In this document: piece by piece, positions 7,257 to 28,345 of the stretch
Layout of the letters: each line of letters begins with the position of its first letter
Position numbering within the stretch: the first letter of the stretch is position 1
Source of the DNA: a virus
Taxonomy: Duplodnaviria; Heunggongvirae; Uroviricota; Caudoviricetes
DNA length: 32,586 nt
Direction: 5' to 3' (one strand)
Virus record (IMG/VR): IMGVR_UViG_2690316104_000008
Location: 1-32,586 of that record
Made by a program: the position numbers and the translations under genes
The notes under the pieces: generated by a model
The model's input: only the letters and a program-made list of their open reading frames with translations
Databases searched by the model: none
Told to the model about the DNA's origin: nothing

Positions 7257-7311
7257 GATGGATCCCCTGAATAAAAACCGGGGATGATGCCAGTTATCCG
7301 TAATCTCTGCA

Positions 7312-7337
7312 TTTTCTTAAACGTTGGTTTGGGAGAA
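7312..7337. repeat. Invertase crossover site, left (hix/gix-like); perfect 14-bp arm 7324..7337
   Basis: ttggtttgggagaa at 7324..7337 is the exact reverse complement of ttctcccaaaccaa at 9176..9189. Confidence 0.65.
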
Positions 7338-7679
7338 GCAGCGAAAATGCCTGCTGCGACAGCATTAGCCAGCAGTGCAGGTAACATCACTATTCCAGTA
7401 TTAATTGGTGGAGTACAACGAACAGCATTGCTTCAGTGGAAGACGCTATCAGTGCCGCAATCTACCGACGGTAATATGGTCGTTGTTGATGGCTCATGGC
7501 CGGTTGCCTTTCCTAATGCTTGCCTTTCCATCAATCCTTCGCTGGTCAATTCTGTGATCTACGCGACTAATGGAGCCCCTTTTGTTAGCGCAGCGATTGT
7601 TGACCGGGTCAAATTCAAAGCCGCTTGCGCATACACGAAATCTAATTCAACAGTGGCAGTATGGGGAGTGGGATATTAA
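7338..7679 (+). other. Silent alternative tail-fibre C-terminal cassette (H'), expressed only after inversion
   Basis: Open frame reads through the crossover site as ...VGLGE AAKMPAATALASS..., mirroring ...LGLGE GSALPAG... at the site inside H; no independent start needed. Confidence 0.6.
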
Positions 7680-8122
7680 TGGTCGACTATGTATTCAGCC
7701 CGACGGAAAATGCTTTTTATCTTGTGGCACTGAAATATGATTATTTAACTGCTGGCACATGGCCGTCAGACGGCATCAATATAGATGCTGAAGATGCACT
7801 GGTTTTCATGGGAAACGCTCCTGAGGGTAAAATGCGTGGCATTGGTGATGATGGGTTGCCTTGCTGGGTAGATCTTCCGTCACCTACGCATAAAGAACAA
7901 CTTGCTGCGGCTGACTCAGAGAAAAAGTCGAGAATTGACCATGCCAACGAATACATGAACGGTAAGCAATGGCCTGGTAAAGCAGCTATCGGTCGTCTGA
8001 AAGGTGAGGAACTGGCACAATATAATTTGTGGCTGGATTATCTGGATGCACTGGAAATGGTCGATATTTCCAGTGCTCCAGATATTGAATGGCCTACGCC
8101 TCCGGTAGTTCAGGCCAGATGA
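7679..8122 (+). CDS. Alternative tail fibre assembly protein (Tfa', G-like), inside invertible segment
   Basis: Start overlaps H' stop (TAATG); C-terminal IEWPTPPV motif shared with the minus-strand Tfa (VIWPELPEA); Mu G-segment-like layout. Confidence 0.7.
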   Translation: MVDYVFSPTENAFYLVALKYDYLTAGTWPSDGINIDAEDALVFMGNAPEGKMRGIGDDGLPCWVDLPSPTHKEQLAAADSEKKSRIDHANEYMNGKQWPGKAAIGRLKGEELAQYNLWLDYLDALEMVDISSAPDIEWPTPPVVQAR

Positions 8123-18775: not shown

Positions 18776-18948
18776 TGTCAGGAGTCCTGAATAGTGATTA
18801 GAGGAGTCACATGTCGGCATCAGTTTCCCGACGATGCGCATCCTCCGCCATCAGTCCCGGATGGCTTATCACTGACACAACAGCACCTTAGCGAATCGCG
18901 GGGCGCGACTCAGTAGCCTTGCCGTGTATTCATCACGGCGAGGTATTC
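18776..18948. promoter_or_regulatory. Divergent late promoter region for the O-to-L and P-Q operons (expected Ogr-dependent)
   Basis: Intergenic between divergent O and P starts; inferred from P2 organisation, motifs not confirmed. Confidence 0.4.
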
Positions 18949-20721
18949 ATGACCATCACCACAGACACCACTCTTTTACACGACCCGCGTCGTCAGGCGG
19001 CGCTGCTGTACTGGCAGGGGTTTTCCGTGCCGCAGATTGCCGCCATGTTGCAGATGAAACGCCCGACGGTGCAGAGCTGGAAACAGCGCGACGGCTGGGA
19101 CAGTGTTGCCCCCATCAGCCGTGTCGAAATGAGCCTGGAAGCGCGGCTGACCCAGCTCATCATCAAACCGCAGAAAACCGGCGGTGACTTCAAGGAAATT
19201 GACCTGCTCGGACGCCAGATTGAACGACTGGCACGGGTAAACCGCTACAGTCAGACCGGCAACGAGGCAGACCTTAATCCGAACGTCGCTAACCGCAACA
19301 AAGGCGGGCGTCGCAAACCGAAAAAGAATTTTTTCAGTGACGAGGCCATCGAAAAGCTGGAGCAGATTTTCTTTGAGCAGTCTTTCGAATATCAGTTGCA
19401 CTGGTATCGCGCCGGGCTTGAGCACCGCATCCGCGATATCCTGAAATCCCGCCAGATTGGCGCGACGTTTTATTTTTCCCGCGAGGCGCTGCTGCGCGCC
19501 CTGAAAACCGGCCATAACCAGATTTTTCTGTCGGCCAGTAAAACGCAGGCGTATGTGTTCCGCGAATACATCATTGCCTTTGCCCGGCTGGTTGACGTTG
19601 ACCTGACCGGTGACCCGATTGTCCTGGGCAATAACGGTGCAAAACTGATTTTTCTCGGCACCAACTCCAACACCGCACAGAGCCATAACGGCGACCTGTA
19701 CGTCGACGAGATTTTCTGGATCCCGAATTTTCAGGTACTGCGTAAGGTAGCATCAGGTATGGCCTCACAGAGTCACCTGCGCTCGACCTATTTCTCCACC
19801 CCGTCCACGCTGGCGCACGACGCCTACCCGTTCTGGTCAGGTGAACTGTTCAACCGGGGACGCGCCAGCGCCGCCGAACGCGTGGAAATCGACGTCAGTC
19901 ATAACGCCCTTGCCGGTGGTCTTCTCTGTGCGGACGGCCAGTGGCGGCAGATTGTCACCATTGAGGATGCCCTGAAAGGTGGCTGCACACTGTTCGACAT
20001 TGAGCAGCTCAAACGTGAAAACAGCGCCGACGATTTTAAAAACCTGTTCATGTGTGAATTTGTTGACGACAAGGCGTCGGTGTTCCCGTTCGAGGAGCTG
20101 CAACGCTGCATGGTCGACACGCTGGAAGAATGGGAAGACTATGCGCCGTTTGCCGCCAATCCGTTCGGCTCACGTCCGGTATGGATTGGTTACGACCCGT
20201 CACACCGTGGCGACAGTGCCGGATGCGTGGTGCTGGCACCGCCGGTGGTGGCCGGTGGCAAATTCAGAATACTTGAGCGTCACCAGTGGAAAGGCATGGA
20301 CTTTGCCACCCAGGCTGAATCCATCCGCAAACTCACCGAAAAATACAACGTCGAATACATCGGAATTGATGCCACCGGCCTCGGTGTCGGCGTGTTCCAG
20401 CTCGTTCGCTCGTTCTATCCCGCCGCGCGCGATATCCGCTACACGCCGGAAATGAAAACCGCAATGGTGCTCAAGGCAAAAGACGTTATTCGCCGTGGCT
20501 GTCTGGAATATGACGTCAGCGCCACCGACATCACCAGCTCGTTTATGGCTATCCGCAAGACCATGACCAGCAGCGGACGCAGCGCCACCTATGAGGCCAG
20601 CCGCAGCGAGGAAGCCAGCCACGCCGACCTCGCCTGGGCGACCATGCACGCCCTGTTAAATGAGCCACTCACCGCCGGTATCAGCACCCCGCTGACATCC
20701 ACCATTCTGGAGTTTTACTGA
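18949..20721 (+). CDS. P: Terminase large (ATPase) subunit P, 590 aa
   Basis: From MTITTDTT with GAGGT ribosome-binding site; length as P2 gpP; synteny. Confidence 0.9.
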   Translation: MTITTDTTLLHDPRRQAALLYWQGFSVPQIAAMLQMKRPTVQSWKQRDGWDSVAPISRVEMSLEARLTQLIIKPQKTGGDFKEIDLLGRQIERLARVNRYSQTGNEADLNPNVANRNKGGRRKPKKNFFSDEAIEKLEQIFFEQSFEYQLHWYRAGLEHRIRDILKSRQIGATFYFSREALLRALKTGHNQIFLSASKTQAYVFREYIIAFARLVDVDLTGDPIVLGNNGAKLIFLGTNSNTAQSHNGDLYVDEIFWIPNFQVLRKVASGMASQSHLRSTYFSTPSTLAHDAYPFWSGELFNRGRASAAERVEIDVSHNALAGGLLCADGQWRQIVTIEDALKGGCTLFDIEQLKRENSADDFKNLFMCEFVDDKASVFPFEELQRCMVDTLEEWEDYAPFAANPFGSRPVWIGYDPSHRGDSAGCVVLAPPVVAGGKFRILERHQWKGMDFATQAESIRKLTEKYNVEYIGIDATGLGVGVFQLVRSFYPAARDIRYTPEMKTAMVLKAKDVIRRGCLEYDVSATDITSSFMAIRKTMTSSGRSATYEASRSEEASHADLAWATMHALLNEPLTAGISTPLTSTILEFY

Positions 20722-21755
20722 TGAGCAAGAAAAAAGGGAAAACACCGCAACCTGCGGCAAAAAAAATGACCGCCAGCGCCCCGAAAATGGAGGCATTCAC
20801 CTTTGGTGAACCGGTGCCGGTACTCGACCGCCGTGACATTCTGGATTACGTCGAGTGCATCAGTAACGGCAGATGGTATGAGCCACCGGTCAGCTTTACC
20901 GGTCTGGCAAAAAGTCTGCGTGCTGCCGTACATCACAGCTCACCGATTTACGTCAAACGTAATATTCTGGCTTCAACGTTTATTCCGCACCCGTGGCTTT
21001 CCCAGCAGGATTTCAGCCGCTTTGTGCTGGATTTTCTGGTATTTGGTAATGCGTTTCTGGAAAAGCGTTACAGCACCACCGGTAAGGTCATCAGACTGGA
21101 AACCTCACCGGCAAAATATACCCGCCGTGGCGTGGAGGAGGATGTTTACTGGTGGGTGCCGTCCTTCAACGAGCCGACAGCCTTCGCGCCCGGCTCCGTG
21201 TTTCACCTGCTGGAGCCGGATATCAATCAGGAGCTGTACGGCCTGCCGGAATATCTCAGCGCCCTTAACTCTGCCTGGCTGAATGAGTCGGCCACGCTGT
21301 TCCGCCGCAAGTATTACGAAAACGGCGCACATGCCGGATACATCATGTACGTCACTGATGCCGTGCAGGATCGCAACGATATCGAAATGCTCCGCGAAAA
21401 CATGGTGAAGTCGAAAGGCCGCAATAACTTTAAAAACCTGTTTCTCTATGCCCCACAGGGAAAAGCCGACGGCATTAAAATTATCCCGCTCAGTGAAGTG
21501 GCCACGAAGGACGATTTTTTTAATATCAAAAAAGCCAGCGCCGCTGACCTGCTGGACGCGCACCGCATCCCCTTTCAGTTGATGGGCGGCAAGCCGGAAA
21601 ACGTCGGGTCGCTGGGCGATATTGAGAAAGTGGCAAAGGTCTTTGTCCGCAATGAACTTATCCCGTTACAGGACAGGATTCGGGAAATAAACGGCTGGCT
21701 CGGTCAGGAGGTCATCCGCTTTAAAAACTACTCACTGGACACTGACAACGGCTGA
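20721..21755 (+). CDS. Q: Portal protein Q
   Basis: 344 aa as P2 gpQ; TGATG overlap with P. Confidence 0.9.
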   Translation: MSKKKGKTPQPAAKKMTASAPKMEAFTFGEPVPVLDRRDILDYVECISNGRWYEPPVSFTGLAKSLRAAVHHSSPIYVKRNILASTFIPHPWLSQQDFSRFVLDFLVFGNAFLEKRYSTTGKVIRLETSPAKYTRRGVEEDVYWWVPSFNEPTAFAPGSVFHLLEPDINQELYGLPEYLSALNSAWLNESATLFRRKYYENGAHAGYIMYVTDAVQDRNDIEMLRENMVKSKGRNNFKNLFLYAPQGKADGIKIIPLSEVATKDDFFNIKKASAADLLDAHRIPFQLMGGKPENVGSLGDIEKVAKVFVRNELIPLQDRIREINGWLGQEVIRFKNYSLDTDNG

Positions 21756-21924: not shown

Positions 21925-21943
21925 GTGCTTTCCCCGCCTCGCC
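21925..21943. other. cos cohesive-end site (19 nt)
   Basis: gtgctttccccgcctcgcc is the reverse complement of the P2 cohesive end GGCGAGGCGGGGAAAGCAC as I recall it; adjacent to Q as expected. Confidence 0.75.
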
Positions 21944-22171
21944 CGCCCGCTTCATGGGGCGGTTTTAATGCAGTTGCATCAGGAAATCAGAGCTCTACCA
22001 ACACTGGCACGCCACCACATGCTTTGAAATAAAAGCGAATGCAAACTCATGCACCAGTTAGATGCATTAGCACAAAGCTGAAAATCATAAAATAAGCGGC
22101 ATAATCCCCCTCATGCTACCAAGAAACTCTCAAGATGTTGTGCTAAACATCGATGATCTGTACCTTGTTTT

Positions 22172-23638
22172 ATGGTAAACATATCTATAAGTAATCACAC
22201 AGATGGAACTAAAATAACTATGGCAAACGATATCATCGAAGCTTTTCCTGCAAAACGTTTCTTTGTAGAAATGTTAACCAGGGATATCGAACTCCAAGAT
22301 GCTATTCTTGACTTATTAGACAACTGTCTTGATGGCGCTCTTCGTTCCATTTCATCATCGAATGAAGAAATAAACGAAGAAAATAAATACCACGGTTTTT
22401 ACTCAAAAATAAATTTTAATGAAGATGGTTTTACAATTGAAGATAATTGTGGCGGAATTTCGGGAAGCTTAGCAACAAGCTATGCTTTCCGAATGGGAAG
22501 ACCAAATGAAAGAGACATAGATAATATCCCAACCATTGGTGTTTATGGGATAGGTATGAAGCGAGCTATTTTTAAGTTGGGCACTTCATCGCAAGTATTA
22601 AGTAAAACAAAAGACGAGGAATTTAAAGTTACAATTTCTCCAGAATGGTTATCCAATGATAAAAACTGGAAACTAGATCTCGAACGTGGTAATGTCGATT
22701 TAAAAACAACGGGCGTAAAAATTATAGTTAACGATCTCAGAGACGATGTAAAAAACCATTTCAAAGTTGATCGTGATTTTCAACAAAAATTAATCAATTC
22801 TGTTTCAAACCATTATAGCCTAATTCTTAATAAAGGTTTCAAGGTCTATATTAATGATATAGAAGTCAAGCCAAATCTGACATCATTAATTATCGATACC
22901 GAAGCTCTTGTGTCAGCGAAAAAAGGTGGTATCACGCCTTATTTTTACAGAGGTGAAACTAATGGAGTTTCAATAAAGATCGCAGTTGGATTCTATAGAG
23001 ATTTTGTGACAGAAGATGAGGAAAATTCATTCCTTACTGGACGTAACACTTCCGAGAAAGCCGGATGGACTATTATCTGCAATGATCGTGTTGTTGTTCA
23101 TGCGGACAAGACACGTCTTACCGGATGGGGTGAAGCAGGAGTTCCACAATATCATACACAATTTGTTGGAATTGCAGGCGTAGCTATTTTTACATCTAAT
23201 GAAGCTGAAAAATTACCTATTACTACTACCAAGAGAGGCATTGATGGTAATTCTGATATCTATTTGGCTACTAAAGATTTCATGCGTGAAGGCTTGAAAA
23301 TATTTACAGATTTTACTAACAGATGGAAAAGTAACTCTCCAGAACGCCAGCAAATGTTTAGTTCCACATCTAAAACAATTCCTCTTACAAACGACAAACT
23401 AGATAGCATAGTACCTGAAGATAAATGGTCTCGGGTGCATAGATCCATTGGTGGGAATAGTTTCAAACCAACATTGCCAATACCTAAAGAAACAGACCCT
23501 TTAAAGCAAATAAAATTTAGTAGAAGATTGAGTGAGATAAAAACTGTTGCCACTTTCATTTTCGATGATGATTCTGTTCCTCCGACAGAAATTGGTAATT
23601 ATTGCTTTGAAGATTTTTTAGAGAGGGCAAAAAAATGA
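22172..23638 (+). CDS. MORC-like GHKL-superfamily ATPase (Bergerat fold) with about 300-aa C-terminal region of unknown function; alternative start at 22220
   Basis: N box DLLDNCLDGAL, G1 box EDNCGGISG, G2 box IGVYGIGMKRAIFKLG (MORC-type G-YG-G-K); AT-rich. Confidence 0.6.
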   Translation: MVNISISNHTDGTKITMANDIIEAFPAKRFFVEMLTRDIELQDAILDLLDNCLDGALRSISSSNEEINEENKYHGFYSKINFNEDGFTIEDNCGGISGSLATSYAFRMGRPNERDIDNIPTIGVYGIGMKRAIFKLGTSSQVLSKTKDEEFKVTISPEWLSNDKNWKLDLERGNVDLKTTGVKIIVNDLRDDVKNHFKVDRDFQQKLINSVSNHYSLILNKGFKVYINDIEVKPNLTSLIIDTEALVSAKKGGITPYFYRGETNGVSIKIAVGFYRDFVTEDEENSFLTGRNTSEKAGWTIICNDRVVVHADKTRLTGWGEAGVPQYHTQFVGIAGVAIFTSNEAEKLPITTTKRGIDGNSDIYLATKDFMREGLKIFTDFTNRWKSNSPERQQMFSSTSKTIPLTNDKLDSIVPEDKWSRVHRSIGGNSFKPTLPIPKETDPLKQIKFSRRLSEIKTVATFIFDDDSVPPTEIGNYCFEDFLERAKK

Positions 23639-24627
23639 GTACTGGGGGAAGTATTCCTTATCATCTTCGACAACACAAAGCTGTCGAAAGAAATCTATTC
23701 ATTGAGTTGCTCAGAAAACTCAACAACTATGTAAACATATCCGATTATGTTTATATCGGGTTTGGTGGCCCTTTTCTAGAAGACTTCAAACAACTGCATA
23801 ATGCTTTAAAAATCAATAACATGATCTCTCTAGAGGTAGATGCTAACGTTCATAAACGACAAAAATTTAACAAACCTATATCATGTATTGATTTAGGAGA
23901 AGAACCTTTAAGTAGCAGTGAATTTATTACTCAAAGCGACTTCGCTGCACCTTCTCTAATTTGGCTTGACTATGCCATACCAAGCCAAATATATGAGCAA
24001 ATGAATGACATTGCTCAATTGGTAAGTAAGTTAAAGCCAAAAGATATATTTAAAATAACTTTAAATGCAACTCCTGAAACTTTAGGAAGAGATTTTCAAG
24101 AAAGAGACCCTAGGCGTTTTCGATTAAAAAAAATACAATCTTTACTTACTCAAGATTATTGCCCAGTGAATCTAACTGTTGATGATGTCACTTTTAAAAG
24201 GTACCCACACCTTTTAATAAAAGCAGCTCAACGTGCCATAAGTATTGGATTAACAGGTAGACTAGATATAATGATCCATCCTTTATGTAATTTTATTTAC
24301 AAAGATGGTCAGCAAATGCTTACCTTTACTGCCATTGTTCTCGAAAACAGTGATATGCAATTAGATAGCTTCCTTCAAAATTCTCGAATTAATTTTTGGC
24401 CCTTTTATTCTGGAGACTGGGGCACCGTCAAAAACATTAGTGTTCCCACGATGTCTTTACGTGAGAGAATCTTTATTGAGGAACGACTTCCTACAAAAGA
24501 CCATGAAGAAATTACCAACGACCTCGGCTTTTACATTGGAGATGATGAAGCCGAGGCTAATAGTAACCTTAAAAACTTTATTGAGTATTACAAAGTAATT
24601 CCGTGGTATTCGAAAGTTCTTCTTTAG
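23635..24627 (+). CDS. Hypothetical protein, 330 aa, translationally coupled partner of the GHKL ATPase
   Basis: ATGA overlap with upstream gene; AT-rich; no motif I can recognise. Confidence 0.5.
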   Translation: MSTGGSIPYHLRQHKAVERNLFIELLRKLNNYVNISDYVYIGFGGPFLEDFKQLHNALKINNMISLEVDANVHKRQKFNKPISCIDLGEEPLSSSEFITQSDFAAPSLIWLDYAIPSQIYEQMNDIAQLVSKLKPKDIFKITLNATPETLGRDFQERDPRRFRLKKIQSLLTQDYCPVNLTVDDVTFKRYPHLLIKAAQRAISIGLTGRLDIMIHPLCNFIYKDGQQMLTFTAIVLENSDMQLDSFLQNSRINFWPFYSGDWGTVKNISVPTMSLRERIFIEERLPTKDHEEITNDLGFYIGDDEAEANSNLKNFIEYYKVIPWYSKVLL

Positions 24628-25729
24628 AAAACTGACATAATTTATATAACGGTAATAGCATAGCTTCAGCTACTAATGGGCTAACGCTATTACCGATTTG
24701 CCTGAAACTATGCCACTTAGTAGGGTGAAACCTAAACCAATCAGGAAAACCTTGTAATCGAGCAGCCTCACGTGGAGTAATAACTCTAGCCTGCGTTGGA
24801 TGGATCGGCCTAACTGCTTGATAACTGCCCTTATCGCTGCCAGTTCCAGCCCTTAGCGTCGGACAGAAACCATTTGGATTTAACCTCTGAGATCGTGAAA
24901 TTTTATCAGTTTCGCCAAAAGAGAGTTTTTTATATCTATTAATAACCTCATCTGTATGTATTGTTCCCAAGAAACCGGAGACCAACCCTTTTTTTAATTT
25001 TTCTAAAGATTCCGGATCACCAACATTATTCGGAACATTACTCCAAAGTCTATCAAAAAAATATCCTTGCCTATCCATCTTAACTTCACGCCAGCCTTGT
25101 TCCTCTTGCTGCCATTCTTTTCTTATAACACGAGGAATACCGTATAAAGCATCTTTAACTAAGGTTTGCTCAATATCTTGCACAGGAAAGAAATCAGATT
25201 CTTTTAAACAATTAGCTAATTCCTTTTTGAATCCGATAAAAAAAATCCTAGTTCTAGTTGTAGGAGCTCCATAATTAGACGCATTCACTTTTATTGGGCT
25301 CAATATTACATATCGGTCTTTTACTAATGAGAATGCTTTTTCTCTAACTGCATCATATTTTTCATTCATTATCCCAGGAACATTCTCTGCCAAGAAACAA
25401 ACAGGTGATAACTCGCTCACCAACCTAAAAAAATGAATATACAATTCATTTCTGACGTCATTAGCCATCCCTTTACCAATTGTACTAAATCCCTGACAAG
25501 GTGGTCCACCGATGACACAATCAATATTACTAACATTACAAGCTGTTAGAATATCATGAGCAGAAAGTTTGCTAACATCTTTATGTAAATGTGTTGAATT
25601 TGGGAAATTAAGAGCATGGGAAAATATTGCATGCTTATCCAACTCAACGGCACCAACCAAGTTAAAGCCTGCCCGTGATGCTCCCAAGCTTAAACCACCT
25701 ACCCCTGAGTATAAATCAACCACATTCAT
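24578..25729 (-). CDS. DNA (cytosine-5)-methyltransferase
   Basis: Motif I DLYSGVGG, motif IV GGPPCQGFS, motif VI ENV, C-terminal GNSV. Confidence 0.9.
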   Translation of the reverse strand: MNVVDLYSGVGGLSLGASRAGFNLVGAVELDKHAIFSHALNFPNSTHLHKDVSKLSAHDILTACNVSNIDCVIGGPPCQGFSTIGKGMANDVRNELYIHFFRLVSELSPVCFLAENVPGIMNEKYDAVREKAFSLVKDRYVILSPIKVNASNYGAPTTRTRIFFIGFKKELANCLKESDFFPVQDIEQTLVKDALYGIPRVIRKEWQQEEQGWREVKMDRQGYFFDRLWSNVPNNVGDPESLEKLKKGLVSGFLGTIHTDEVINRYKKLSFGETDKISRSQRLNPNGFCPTLRAGTGSDKGSYQAVRPIHPTQARVITPREAARLQGFPDWFRFHPTKWHSFRQIGNSVSPLVAEAMLLPLYKLCQFSKEELSNTTELLCNTQ

Positions 25730-25779
25730 GTTCAGTTAACCATATATGTATATTTAGACAACAATATTTAATTCTACCA

Positions 25780-28080
25780 TTACTTGAGCTCTTTGCTGAA
25801 GTACTCATTACTAAAACCCTGCCACTCATCGACATTACTTGCCACATACTTATATTTTTTATCATCGAATATCACCATCGCACCACGCGCCAGCGCCTCA
25901 AGCTCCCATCGCTGTGGCCTGATACCGTTCTGAGCAAGGTCAACGCGGATACGGGTAATTTGCATTCGTTCCGACCGGGTCAGTCTGGCCGATGGCGCTA
26001 TTTCATGCGGTTTTAACGGGCTTCCGTTTCTTTGCTGACGGTTTGGTCTTCTCAGACCGTGTTTTAATGCACCTCTGAGCGCCCTCACGACCTCCTGGTC
26101 ATTCCATTTGATAACACCGCCATCTACCAGATTAAGCACTGCTACGGCGTGTTCAGAAGGCGTGGGAGCCGGTGACGAAGTATCACCACCGGTGAGCTTT
26201 CCACAGTTATTGACAGGACTCCGAGGCGCGGCGATGCCGCTTTTTAAAGTCAAAGGCTCCACGACCGGAACTTTCGGAACAATGCGCCAGTCCGTCGTTC
26301 TGGTGATATGAATATGACGCGCGCCGAGATGCGGCGCGTAAATGCCGACCACTCTCTCGACTTCTTCCTCGTACTCGTTAACTTCATCCGACGGGCTACG
26401 GGCAACCCTGACAGTCTGACAATCGCGCGGAACATTTGCCCCACCCTGCGCGCTGATATACAACGCAAAATCACCACTGTCTGCGGCAGCGCGAGCAGCC
26501 TCGACGCGTTCGTCAAACTCATCAGCAATACTGACGCCGCGAGGCAATTTGCGTAGTTCACGGTAAGCCCCCATTGTCGGCAGGCCAACCGTTTTAAATT
26601 GTGGAATGCGCCACGTTGACGCCCATGCGGTAACAGCCGCGGCAGTGTCTTTCAGCGGCCTGCCGGTATCGTTATCGAGCTGACCATCCAGTGCATAGCC
26701 GTCGATGTTTTTTGAAATGTATTTCGCGATATATCCCGCAGCACCGCCCCGGTTAAGGTGTTTTGCCTGAAAACGGTTTCGCGCAGCTCCTCTTTCGTCA
26801 CCATCCTCTTTGAGCGCATAGCGACGCATGATTTCGATAATCTGATTACGCTGGCGTGGATTACAAAAAAGCATCATATGCCAGTGCGGCGTTCCGTCGT
26901 GGTGTGGCTCGACGACACGCAAACCGTAGACCTGTAAATCATTATCCTTGAATGCCGTGCGCATCAGGCTCCAGATGCGGCAGAGATAACGCTGCGCATC
27001 CTTTGGATTAAATGCCTCATCGTTCCAGCCGTGATTTAGCTGGACGGTTTTACTTTCGCCTTTTCCGACCTGACGTGTCGGGTGATACTTTGACGGCGCG
27101 GTCAGCGTGATAAACATCCCCACATCACCCTCTGCGGCGGCGTAACGCTCAATACCGGCAATGGTGTTCATCAGCTCCATCCGGCGAATTTCAGGATTAG
27201 AAATACTTCCCATCACCTTACTGATAAGGTCGATGCGCTCGCCGGTTTCCCTGTTTTCAAGGTCACACGATTTAAGAAATTCCAGATTTGCCTGGCGGCG
27301 CGCACGCACATCACGAATGGCATGTTTACTGGCATAAGGAGAACGGTCTTTATTGACCTCCCCGACAGCAATCAGTAACGCTTCATGCCAGCGCATACGT
27401 TGACCTTTAAGCTGATGAGTCCACCACTCATCGTTAAACAGGCGGGCAATGGCAGAATATGCCTGCCTCGTGGTCATCTGTCCTTTACGGTATTTTTTCC
27501 AGTAAAGCGGGGAAATATTGAAAGCACGTGCAGCGCCAGCAACATGACCATACAGGTGAGCCTGAGCCTCATCCGTAAACAGTGATTCTTTTTCGCCATG
27601 CGCATCCACCCAGGCATCGCTGAGTTCCTCATACATCATGAAAAGCTGCGATGAGATACGGGCGGCAAACTTTTTCAGCTCCTTGTCATTCATCCCCGGC
27701 AGACGCGCATAATGGTCACGCTCTGCCAGAAACAGCAACGACGCGTCGGTGTTCATTTCATGGCGCTGATTCACACGTTCAATGCGCGGCCATAAACGAC
27801 GCTGAAAAGTGGATGTGAGGAAATAAAACCCGTGTACCGGGCTTTTATTGCGCCGGATGTAGTCATAGCGTGAAGTAAACAGCGAGCGCAAAAAGTAAGG
27901 CAGGCGGTTAATCGTGGATAAAACACCTTGCACCTGACGCATCTCGTCACGTGTAAGGGGTCTTTCGCGCCCGACAGCCTCGCGTGGCGCGTTCCATGCA
28001 TAAGCACCGGTAAACGCCTTACCGGTGCCTGCGGCAAATGCTGATGGAGGGACAAAACGCCCGGAGGCTTTAACGGCCAT
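25780..28080 (-). CDS. A: Replication initiation protein A (rolling-circle nickase)
   Basis: From MAVKASGRFVPPSAF, matching remembered P2 gpA N-terminus; HUH-type region EPHHDGTPHWHMMLF; ORF-track start 28122 is an extension. Confidence 0.9.
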   Translation of the reverse strand: MAVKASGRFVPPSAFAAGTGKAFTGAYAWNAPREAVGRERPLTRDEMRQVQGVLSTINRLPYFLRSLFTSRYDYIRRNKSPVHGFYFLTSTFQRRLWPRIERVNQRHEMNTDASLLFLAERDHYARLPGMNDKELKKFAARISSQLFMMYEELSDAWVDAHGEKESLFTDEAQAHLYGHVAGAARAFNISPLYWKKYRKGQMTTRQAYSAIARLFNDEWWTHQLKGQRMRWHEALLIAVGEVNKDRSPYASKHAIRDVRARRQANLEFLKSCDLENRETGERIDLISKVMGSISNPEIRRMELMNTIAGIERYAAAEGDVGMFITLTAPSKYHPTRQVGKGESKTVQLNHGWNDEAFNPKDAQRYLCRIWSLMRTAFKDNDLQVYGLRVVEPHHDGTPHWHMMLFCNPRQRNQIIEIMRRYALKEDGDERGAARNRFQAKHLNRGGAAGYIAKYISKNIDGYALDGQLDNDTGRPLKDTAAAVTAWASTWRIPQFKTVGLPTMGAYRELRKLPRGVSIADEFDERVEAARAAADSGDFALYISAQGGANVPRDCQTVRVARSPSDEVNEYEEEVERVVGIYAPHLGARHIHITRTTDWRIVPKVPVVEPLTLKSGIAAPRSPVNNCGKLTGGDTSSPAPTPSEHAVAVLNLVDGGVIKWNDQEVVRALRGALKHGLRRPNRQQRNGSPLKPHEIAPSARLTRSERMQITRIRVDLAQNGIRPQRWELEALARGAMVIFDDKKYKYVASNVDEWQGFSNEYFSKELK

Positions 28081-28345
28081 ATGAGCCAAAAGCCTCTGAA
28101 CAACGCTTGCTGAGTTGCTCAACCTGCGCGTTTAAATCAGCAAAAGACTTTGCGCTTCCGGTCAGAATATCGTGATGCATCATGCCGGAAACGAGCTGGC
28201 TTAATTTCGGGTAATAACCAACCACCGACAGCCATTCCTGACCGGCGTTTTTACCGCTTTCCGCTCTCTTTTTCTCGTGGAGAATAAACTGAAAGCTGTC
28301 ACTGGTAACGACATAACGTTCGCCAATTTCAATACGAATACTCAT
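28070..28345 (-). CDS. Hypothetical early protein (P2 orf83 position)
   Basis: 91-aa ORF between the zinc-finger ORF and A; synteny only. Confidence 0.55.
   Translation of the reverse strand: MSIRIEIGERYVVTSDSFQFILHEKKRAESGKNAGQEWLSVVGYYPKLSQLVSGMMHHDILTGSAKSFADLNAQVEQLSKRCSEAFGSYGR

Follow-up and report, generated by a model that had tools for sequence, protein, structure and literature searches.

A mobile three-gene module of a MORC-like ATPase, a methyltransferase-fold partner and a C5 cytosine methyltransferase in P2-like and other prophages: a possible methylation-keyed anti-phage system

The P2-like prophage deposited as IMG/VR record IMGVR_UViG_2690316104_000008, a nearly complete element analyzed here over its whole window of 32,586 nt, carries three low-GC genes between its cos site and replication gene A. 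They encode a MORC-like GHKL ATPase (22220-23638, plus strand, 472 aa), a translationally coupled partner of family PF20553 (Methyltransf_35) with a class-I S-adenosylmethionine (SAM)-methyltransferase fold (23635-24627, plus strand, 330 aa), and a convergent Dcm-type C5 cytosine DNA methyltransferase (24578-25729, minus strand, 383 aa). Together these genes, referred to below as the triad, constitute a conserved, laterally mobile three-gene module. Hotspot location, conservation, mobility, occurrence inside DISARM operons and intact enzyme motifs support a role in defense, and we put at about even the chance that the triad is an unnamed, methylation-keyed anti-phage module that resembles restriction-modification (R-M) systems but has no recognizable nuclease. 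A preliminary description of this DNA had suggested an uncharacterized methylation-linked restriction or defense module; the terms uncharacterized and methylation-linked stand, whereas restriction of the cutting type is not supported, as no nuclease is present.

To assess conservation, relatives of the partner were gathered from 70 loci, with one genome per species, spanning more than ten phyla: Proteobacteria, Cyanobacteria, Bacteroidota, Acidobacteriota, Verrucomicrobiota, Latescibacterota, Poribacteria, Planctomycetota and Actinomycetota are all represented, as is one methanogen. In every one of the 70 loci the gene immediately upstream of the partner encodes the ATPase, in most cases with its stop codon overlapping the start codon of the partner gene, and the sequence identities of the two proteins are correlated with r = 0.85; this invariant adjacency and co-evolution suggest that the two form a complex. 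Of the 70 loci, 54 also encode a C5 methyltransferase, and a contig edge accounts for 8 of the 16 exceptions. Three arrangements occur, namely a Dcm-ATPase-partner operon, the convergent order found in the window, and a divergent order, a variety that recalls R-M systems. The very-short-patch repair gene Vsr (PF03852) is linked in 18 loci, which suggests that 5-methylcytosine (5mC) is really made. One could suppose that the Dcm is an orphan phage enzyme which happens to occupy the same hotspot as an unrelated two-gene operon and forms no functional unit with it, given that the Dcm gene and the pair are convergent and not co-transcribed in the window and that the identity of Dcm correlates with that of the pair at only r = 0.40-0.52, below the value within the pair. 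We regard such a coincidence as highly improbable, since the linkage persists in more than ten phyla, in all three gene arrangements and in three prophage families that are unrelated to one another.

At 2 of 106 loci the ATPase-partner pair is nested within an operon classed as complete class-1 DISARM, with no Dcm. The gene order is DrmMI, DrmD, ATPase, partner, DrmA, DrmB, DrmC in one (locus L044, 239-12323) and DrmD, DrmMI, ATPase, partner, DrmA, DrmB in the other (L107, 15-11178). The pair may be an optional, unrecognized DISARM accessory or a defense system nested within DISARM, and the triad could explain accessory genes in some DISARM operons. These two embeddings, together with the conserved Dcm linkage across phyla, strongly reinforce the functional link to methylation that had been proposed at the outset.

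The distribution of the triad within E. coli and its phages is that of a mobile cargo. Among 5426 complete E. coli genomes, only 3 contain the exact island; about 46 further genomes have, at the same P2 site, a variant with 63-81% protein identity; and a third variant resides in the nin-region of lambdoid prophages in about 170 genomes, many of them enterohemorrhagic E. coli O157:H7 or O111:H8. Some variant of the triad is found in 222 of the 5426. Among IMG/VR viral contigs, 36 contain the partner, with Dcm adjacent in 35; at least 21 of the 36 hold the triad between portal gene Q and gene A of P2-like phages, and some are lambdoid and have replication protein O and DnaT/DUF968 as neighbors. 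Carriage at the P2 cos/gene-A hotspot extends over the window, three related loci (L002, L003 and L074) and at least 21 viral contigs, and the recurrence of the same triad there, including the second E. coli variant, agrees with the early assignment of the island to the P2 old/tin cargo site. Experiments have shown anti-phage systems at this hotspot (Rousset 2022, PMC9122126). The triad is also located at the accessory end of PfAC20, a filamentous Pf inovirus prophage of Pseudomonas, and is thus cargo of three unrelated prophage families (P2-like, lambdoid and Pf inovirus), all copies being low in GC. In the paper on PfAC20 the locus appears as no more than an "incomplete" RM, for which PADLOC detected a lone cytosine methyltransferase; current annotation tools give such loci only this label, and the system is therefore systematically missed. 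One lambdoid nin-region triad, in E. coli O157:H7 strain 611 (L075, 5200-8699), has a Dcm of the PDB 3G7U family, so that through the solved 3G7U structure one triad component is already represented by a crystal structure.

Within the ATPase, Pfam identifies only HATPase_c_3 (1e-9). An AlphaFold model built from 39 homologues (predicted local distance difference test, pLDDT, 80.6) comprises a GHKL domain, a transducer domain of S5 fold that has a conserved basic finger and, at the C-terminus, a helical region of some 130 residues, and is structurally closest to MORC3 and MORC2. The Bergerat-fold N, G1 and G2 boxes that had been read from the sequence are all present, with D31/D34/N35/D38/G39, D75-N-C-G-G and G107-x-Y-G-I-G-M-K-R at least 95% conserved among 52 sequences from many phyla. 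The motif GhXhhpXXRhl has been described as the feature uniting MORCs (Iyer et al. 2008, PMC2292703), and the stretch G282-W-T-I-I-C-N-D-R-V-V of the ATPase matches it at every position, with G282, C287, N288, D289 and R290 invariant in the same 52 sequences. Both this S5 motif and the structural proximity to MORC3 and MORC2 fit the MORC-like label given earlier. A profile search against PDB sequences returned MORC3 and MORC4 as the sole GHKL matches, at E-values that are not significant (0.18-0.46). With its ATP-binding motifs intact the ATPase looks active, and neither profile searches nor structural comparison found a nuclease domain in it. Asp31, four positions before the N-box Asn, is invariant in the ATPase family and in a GHKL paralogue described below. 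The corresponding position is the catalytic Glu in MutL, GyrB, Hsp90 and MORC, and the substitution may result in a slow, switch-like turnover of ATP.

A rival reading assigns the triad a different function, in which a MutL-like ATPase would aid Vsr in very-short-patch repair at Dcm sites and thereby curb C-to-T mutation of 5mC. Vsr is indeed linked in 18 loci, and the stimulation of Vsr by MutL was noted by Iyer et al. 2008 (PMC2292703). We nonetheless hold a repair accessory to be very unlikely, because the ATPase is nearer MORC than MutL and most loci, the window included, have no linked Vsr, and because the methyltransferase-fold partner, the prophage cargo sites and the embedding in DISARM would all be left unexplained.

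The partner, initially considered unknown, has to be reclassified. It matches PF20553 with an E-value of 3e-84 (283.4 bits against a cutoff of 27), its residues 3-328 aligning with profile positions 2-307 of 309. The family is named "putative O-methyltransferase", where the "O-" is a database name only, for which we found no experimental basis. A model with a pLDDT of 90 shows a class-I, Rossmann-type methyltransferase core followed by a C-terminal helical subdomain, and the protein fits a Rossmann-like seven-stranded fold with a motif I glycine loop, a motif II acid and a motif IV acid. Residues conserved across phyla in 52 sequences include Y40, G44, E49 and D50 in the motif I region, W110 and D112 in motif IV, a basic N-terminal cluster (Y9/H10/R12/K15/R19), and R75, Q76, Y222, D224 and E277. 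Such conservation is consistent with an active enzyme binding a substrate rich in phosphate. Its best structural matches are the RNA base methyltransferases Trm1, RsmD-like, RlmO, RlmJ and TlyA; there are no sequence relatives in the PDB, hhalign detected no similarity to RlmJ or RsmJ, and profile searches and structural comparison revealed no nuclease. The family comprises about 2000 clusters at 50% identity (1984 representatives). No domain fusions were seen among the best 150 of these 1984 representatives, which all stand alone and are mostly 300-380 aa long, with a few shorter fragments. The copy of the identical island in E. coli GF43 (NZ_CP172127.1), one of the three genomes that have it, is one base shorter, and its partner gene is annotated in two pieces ("O-methyltransferase (x2)") and probably frameshifted.

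A second GHKL gene accompanies the triad at seven loci (L008, L009, L010, L012, L015, L017 and L067). This paralogue is longer, at 546-610 aa, adjoins the same Dcm, and also has the GxxxxCNDR S5 motif (for example L008, 10243-11961, and L009, 4846-6486). Its C-terminus is a Ymh-type HEPN domain in L009 and a domain with no Pfam match in L008. The GHKL-Ymh HEPN architecture has been noted before and proposed as an analogue of PrrC/RloC (Anantharaman et al. 2013). In a Rhodoferax locus (L020, 11397-13706, minus strand) a second, divergent ATPase-partner pair (E-values of 5e-75 and 9e-30) is situated about 1 kb past the single Dcm, and the two pairs may share one methylase.

These features bear on an interpretation in which the triad acts in abortive infection. 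The ATPase would sense a phage cue or a failure of methylation, for example inhibition of the methyltransferase or depletion of SAM, and release the PF20553 enzyme, which would then methylate an essential RNA (tRNA or rRNA) or protein and halt growth of the infected cell; the linked Dcm would be what is guarded and not a marker of self. The structural affinity of the partner to RNA base methyltransferases, its best matches, agrees with such a guard, as do the GHKL paralogue beside the same Dcm in seven loci, HEPN-fused in at least one of them (L009), the nesting of the pair in DISARM operons, which resembles that of PrrC within a type I R-M operon, and the fact that the pair can occur with no adjacent methyltransferase. 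The linkage to one Dcm subfamily with a conserved target-recognition domain is, however, tighter than a generic guard requires, and an RNA target cannot be inferred. We judge this interpretation unlikely, though deserving of some weight.

The third protein is a true C5 methyltransferase, as the preliminary description had it, matching Pfam DNA_methylase (PF00145, 9e-58), TIGR00675 dcm (3e-49), PADLOC MTase_II (8e-95) and PDB 3G7U (1e-156), and its PADLOC matches are to methyltransferase models only. PDB 3G7U was deposited as a "putative DNA modification methyltransferase", and we take it to be the methylase of E. coli O157:H7 prophage CP-933R. Most of the linked Dcm enzymes belong to one subfamily, like 3G7U, with alignable target-recognition domains, and remain about 50% identical to the Dcm of the window even where partner identity is down to 25-30%. 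Between the window and the O157:H7 lambdoid variant, identity is 64% for Dcm against 41% for the ATPase and 34% for the partner; between the window and the second P2 variant it is 81% against 63% and 64%, respectively. The greater conservation of Dcm would correspond to the usual pattern of M genes relative to R genes.

Alternatively, the triad could be a DNA-modification module in the service of its own mobile element. DNA would then be modified by both proteins of methyltransferase fold, the ATPase would load them or confer processivity, and foreign DNA would not be attacked; prophage and host DNA would be shielded from other restriction systems or an epigenetic state would be set. Orphan methyltransferases are common in phages, the close relative 3G7U was deposited under no more specific a function than DNA modification, the partner retains SAM-type motifs with a D112-aromatic motif IV reminiscent of amino-methyltransferases, and a nuclease is absent, all of which this reading would accommodate. 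Set against it, the P2 cargo site holds lysogen-expressed defense genes according to the literature, no DNA methyltransferase is known to need a MORC-type clamp ATPase, and the chromosomal copies with Vsr in many phyla, like the DISARM embedding, point to conflict systems. The ATPase and partner also evolve faster than Dcm, which is more typical of arms-race effectors. On balance we think a pure modification module improbable.

We favor a methylation-keyed anti-phage module and propose the following mechanism. The C5 methyltransferase, the enzyme family of which is established, would mark the DNA of the lysogen by a presumed activity at a presumed target site, and the ATPase and its coupled PF20553 partner would form one complex. 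ATP-dependent dimerization and clamping of DNA are established for GHKL ATPases of the kind represented by MutL, MORC and topoisomerases. By analogy with MORC and MutL, the triad ATPase would behave likewise, and the complex would engage DNA that has no 5mC. The partner, whose SAM-methyltransferase fold is intact and whose pocket is basic and deeply conserved, would be the effector or reader on nucleic acid, either modifying the invader or probing flipped bases for the mark. An invading phage or plasmid would thus be blocked or silenced and not cut, and the lysogen, hence the prophage, would be protected from other phages. The R-M-like logic of this proposal rests on the methylase-first and separate-transcript arrangements, the slower evolution of the methylase, the Vsr linkage and the two methylation contexts in which the pair is found (Dcm and DISARM DrmMI).

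Several observations weigh against such a module. Its chief weakness is the absence of a nuclease from all three proteins, which implies that the outcome is not direct cleavage but either silencing or compaction, a modification that is toxic or blocking, or the recruitment of host nucleases. Simple R-M logic has no need of a second, apparently active enzyme of methyltransferase fold. The pair is found with no nearby methyltransferase in five cyanobacterial and two Parabeggiatoa loci. Clustering of neighbors across the 70 loci gave only Vsr (18) and the GHKL paralogue (7), and thus no conserved fourth gene such as a nuclease, helicase or effector; a Pfam and PADLOC survey of 138 flanking proteins returned scattered integrases, type I/III restriction genes, UvrD/NERD proteins and housekeeping genes, and at chromosomal loci the immediate neighbors are only occasionally defense genes. 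In the window only about 50 bp separate the stop of gene A from the start codon of Dcm, which follows it on the same strand (25729-25782), and a promoter scan gave no clear promoter-like site between the two genes, so that Dcm might be transcribed by read-through from the phage early operon and not from its own promoter, a point that would matter for any self-protection model. Lastly, we found no experimental report on any member of the triad in the literature searched.

A more specific and, in our view, unlikely form of the methylation-keyed reading is nuclease-free immunity. Here a true MORC ATPase would read the absence of 5-methylcytosine and silence invading DNA by ATP-driven clamping or compaction, with the methyltransferase-fold subunit as a base-flipping reader or as the writer of a second mark. 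If true, the triad would be a prokaryotic forerunner of eukaryotic gene silencing by MORC and DNA methylation, and three genes would suffice to test this in E. coli. A role of bacterial MORC-type ATPases in R-M systems, and their position as ancestors of the eukaryotic MORC silencers, were predicted in 2008 (PMC2292703), and we found no tested system built on a stand-alone bacterial MORC-type ATPase. The triad is compact (3.5 kb), native to E. coli, and carried in a hotspot whose cargo has repeatedly proved antiviral, which makes bacterial MORC function directly testable in that host. A nuclease-free triad with an apparently active methyltransferase-fold enzyme could reveal a new way to discriminate or neutralize unmethylated DNA.

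PADLOC 2.0, NCBIfam 20.0, PHROGs and the literature searched yielded neither a name nor a model for the triad, nor any experiment on it. PADLOC gave no match for the ATPase or the partner at E-values up to 1, both fall in PHROGs families of "unknown function", and NCBIfam offered only a weak MzaB match far below threshold; the earlier statement that the pair matches no named defense system thus holds. The main texts of Rousset 2022 and of the 2026 Nucleic Acids Research (NAR) paper on the P2 hotspot mention neither GHKL, MORC nor Dcm. The nearest precedent is the set of R-M-like MORC/paraMORC systems predicted by Iyer, Abhiman and Aravind 2008 (PMC2292703), who included a minority class with a methylase and no helicase, sometimes with a second GHKL paralogue. 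The triad shares with those systems a GHKL and S5 ATPase with the MORC motif, cytosine methylases and Vsr, as well as a sporadic distribution across phyla and lateral mobility, and the minority class with a second paralogue corresponds to the seven triad loci with an extra GHKL gene. Unlike them, the triad lacks an SF-II helicase and any nuclease of the restriction-fold, HNH or HKD type, and its obligate PF20553 partner is not described in the main text of that paper. By its domain content the triad may best be described as a variant of the MORC-associated R-M-like systems predicted in 2008, with an obligate PF20553 partner.

Membership in other systems was considered and rejected. A classical type II R-M system would be consistent with Dcm as the cognate DNA methyltransferase, but the three proteins contain no PD-(D/E)xK, HNH, GIY-YIG, PLD or similar nuclease. 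DISARM is likewise a methylation-keyed defense, and the Dcm of the window scores 5e-50 on DrmMII models; the core DrmA-DrmB-DrmC is nevertheless absent from the window, as are DrmD and DrmE, and the ATPase and partner match no DISARM model. BREX/Pgl systems also combine a methyltransferase and an ATPase with no recognizable nuclease and presumed self-marking by methylation. According to PADLOC, however, the triad contains no homologues of PglZ, BrxC, BrxL or PglX, and its putative mark would be on C5 of cytosine and not on N6 of adenine, its ATPase being of GHKL and not P-loop type. In MZA, MzaB is a GHKL ATPase of HATPase_c_3 type (NCBIfam), but the triad ATPase reaches 14.5 bits against a cutoff of 850 and the MZA partners are absent. 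In paraMORC3 and type I-D Shedu (VcSduA), and in paraMORC-Ymh HEPN proteins, a GHKL ATPase serves as sensor or regulator of a defense effector. The putative effector of the triad is by contrast a separate methyltransferase-fold protein with no fused DUF4263 nuclease or HEPN domain, and the defining components of Shedu are absent, although a paraMORC-Ymh HEPN fusion adjoins the triad's Dcm in at least one locus. Compared with eukaryotic MORC2/MORC3 and SMCHD1, the ATPase has no CW, coiled-coil or other chromatin-reader domains, its sequence similarity is not significant (E-value of 0.18), and its N-box acid is Asp and not Glu.

The genomic setting of the triad is well delimited. The preliminary description had placed a low-GC island of about 3.8 kb between cos and gene A, which is borne out by the GC profile and the open reading frame (ORF) list: GC is 0.32-0.40 across approximately 21,980-25,780 against 0.52-0.58 in the flanks, and the three triad genes average 36.0% against 53.2% for the remaining window. 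From the GC profile, the island in place of P2 old/tin spans 21985-25780. Its left edge is marked by an exact match over 19 nt (21925-21943, minus strand; chance expectation 0) to GGCGAGGCGGGGAAAGCAC, which we take to be the P2 cos cohesive-end sequence. In P2, the genes old and tin sit between cos and gene A. Backbone homology with other P2-like phages stops about 40 bp beyond cos, which indicates that the island fills the old/tin site. To the left lie terminase and portal genes (18919-21755, plus strand), including portal gene Q (20721-21755, plus strand), annotated as "phage portal protein" in the identical E. coli locus. To the right is replication gene A (25780-28122, minus strand), annotated as "replication endonuclease", a homologue of which in the flank of a related locus matches Pfam Phage_GPA. 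A search of the island for flanking repeats or an RNA gene found nothing convincing.

The three ORFs lie at the positions first reported, 22172-23638 (plus strand, 488 aa), 23635-24627 (plus strand, 330 aa) and 24578-25729 (minus strand, 383 aa). The plus-strand operon described at that time is retained, but its first product is shortened: the longest ORF begins at 22172, and the most likely start is the ATG at 22220, giving 472 aa, since this start is the one used by RefSeq/PGAP and matches the beginning of both the homologues and the PHROG profile. Between the ATPase and partner genes there is a 4-bp overlap (ATGA), and the partner and Dcm genes, which converge, share 50 bp at their 3' ends (24578-24627); an overlap of about 50 bp recurs in L002, L003 and L076-L092, and one of about 30-50 bp in L004, L006, L011, L074 and L075.

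Upstream of the ATPase gene, a promoter-like site at 22078-22105 (plus strand; CTGAAA-16-CATAAT, 9 of 12 matches) is a weak candidate, the promoter scan overall being not enriched relative to shuffled sequences; a ATGCAAAnTCATGCAC motif near it is conserved among diverged variants. The stretch before this site (21968-22075) contains a series of ATGCA/TGCAT motifs, with ATGCAGTTGCAT directly after cos, ATGCAAACTCATGCAC at approximately 22039-22054 and ATGCAT at approximately 22064. The middle motif, ATGCAAACTCATGCAC, is kept in L074, L002 and L078 although their proteins are only 62-72% identical. It could serve as an operator or belong to the cos packaging region.

Elsewhere in the window, a pair of plus-strand ORFs (7284-8122) stands amid minus-strand tail genes at a local GC dip of 0.48. 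The first encodes a C-terminal tail-fiber fragment (Gp53-like_C, 5e-5, slightly below the Pfam gathering score) and the second a tail-fiber assembly protein (Caudo_TAP, 3e-29). This locus looks like an alternative or inverted tail-fiber cassette and not like defense cargo at the second P2 hotspot.

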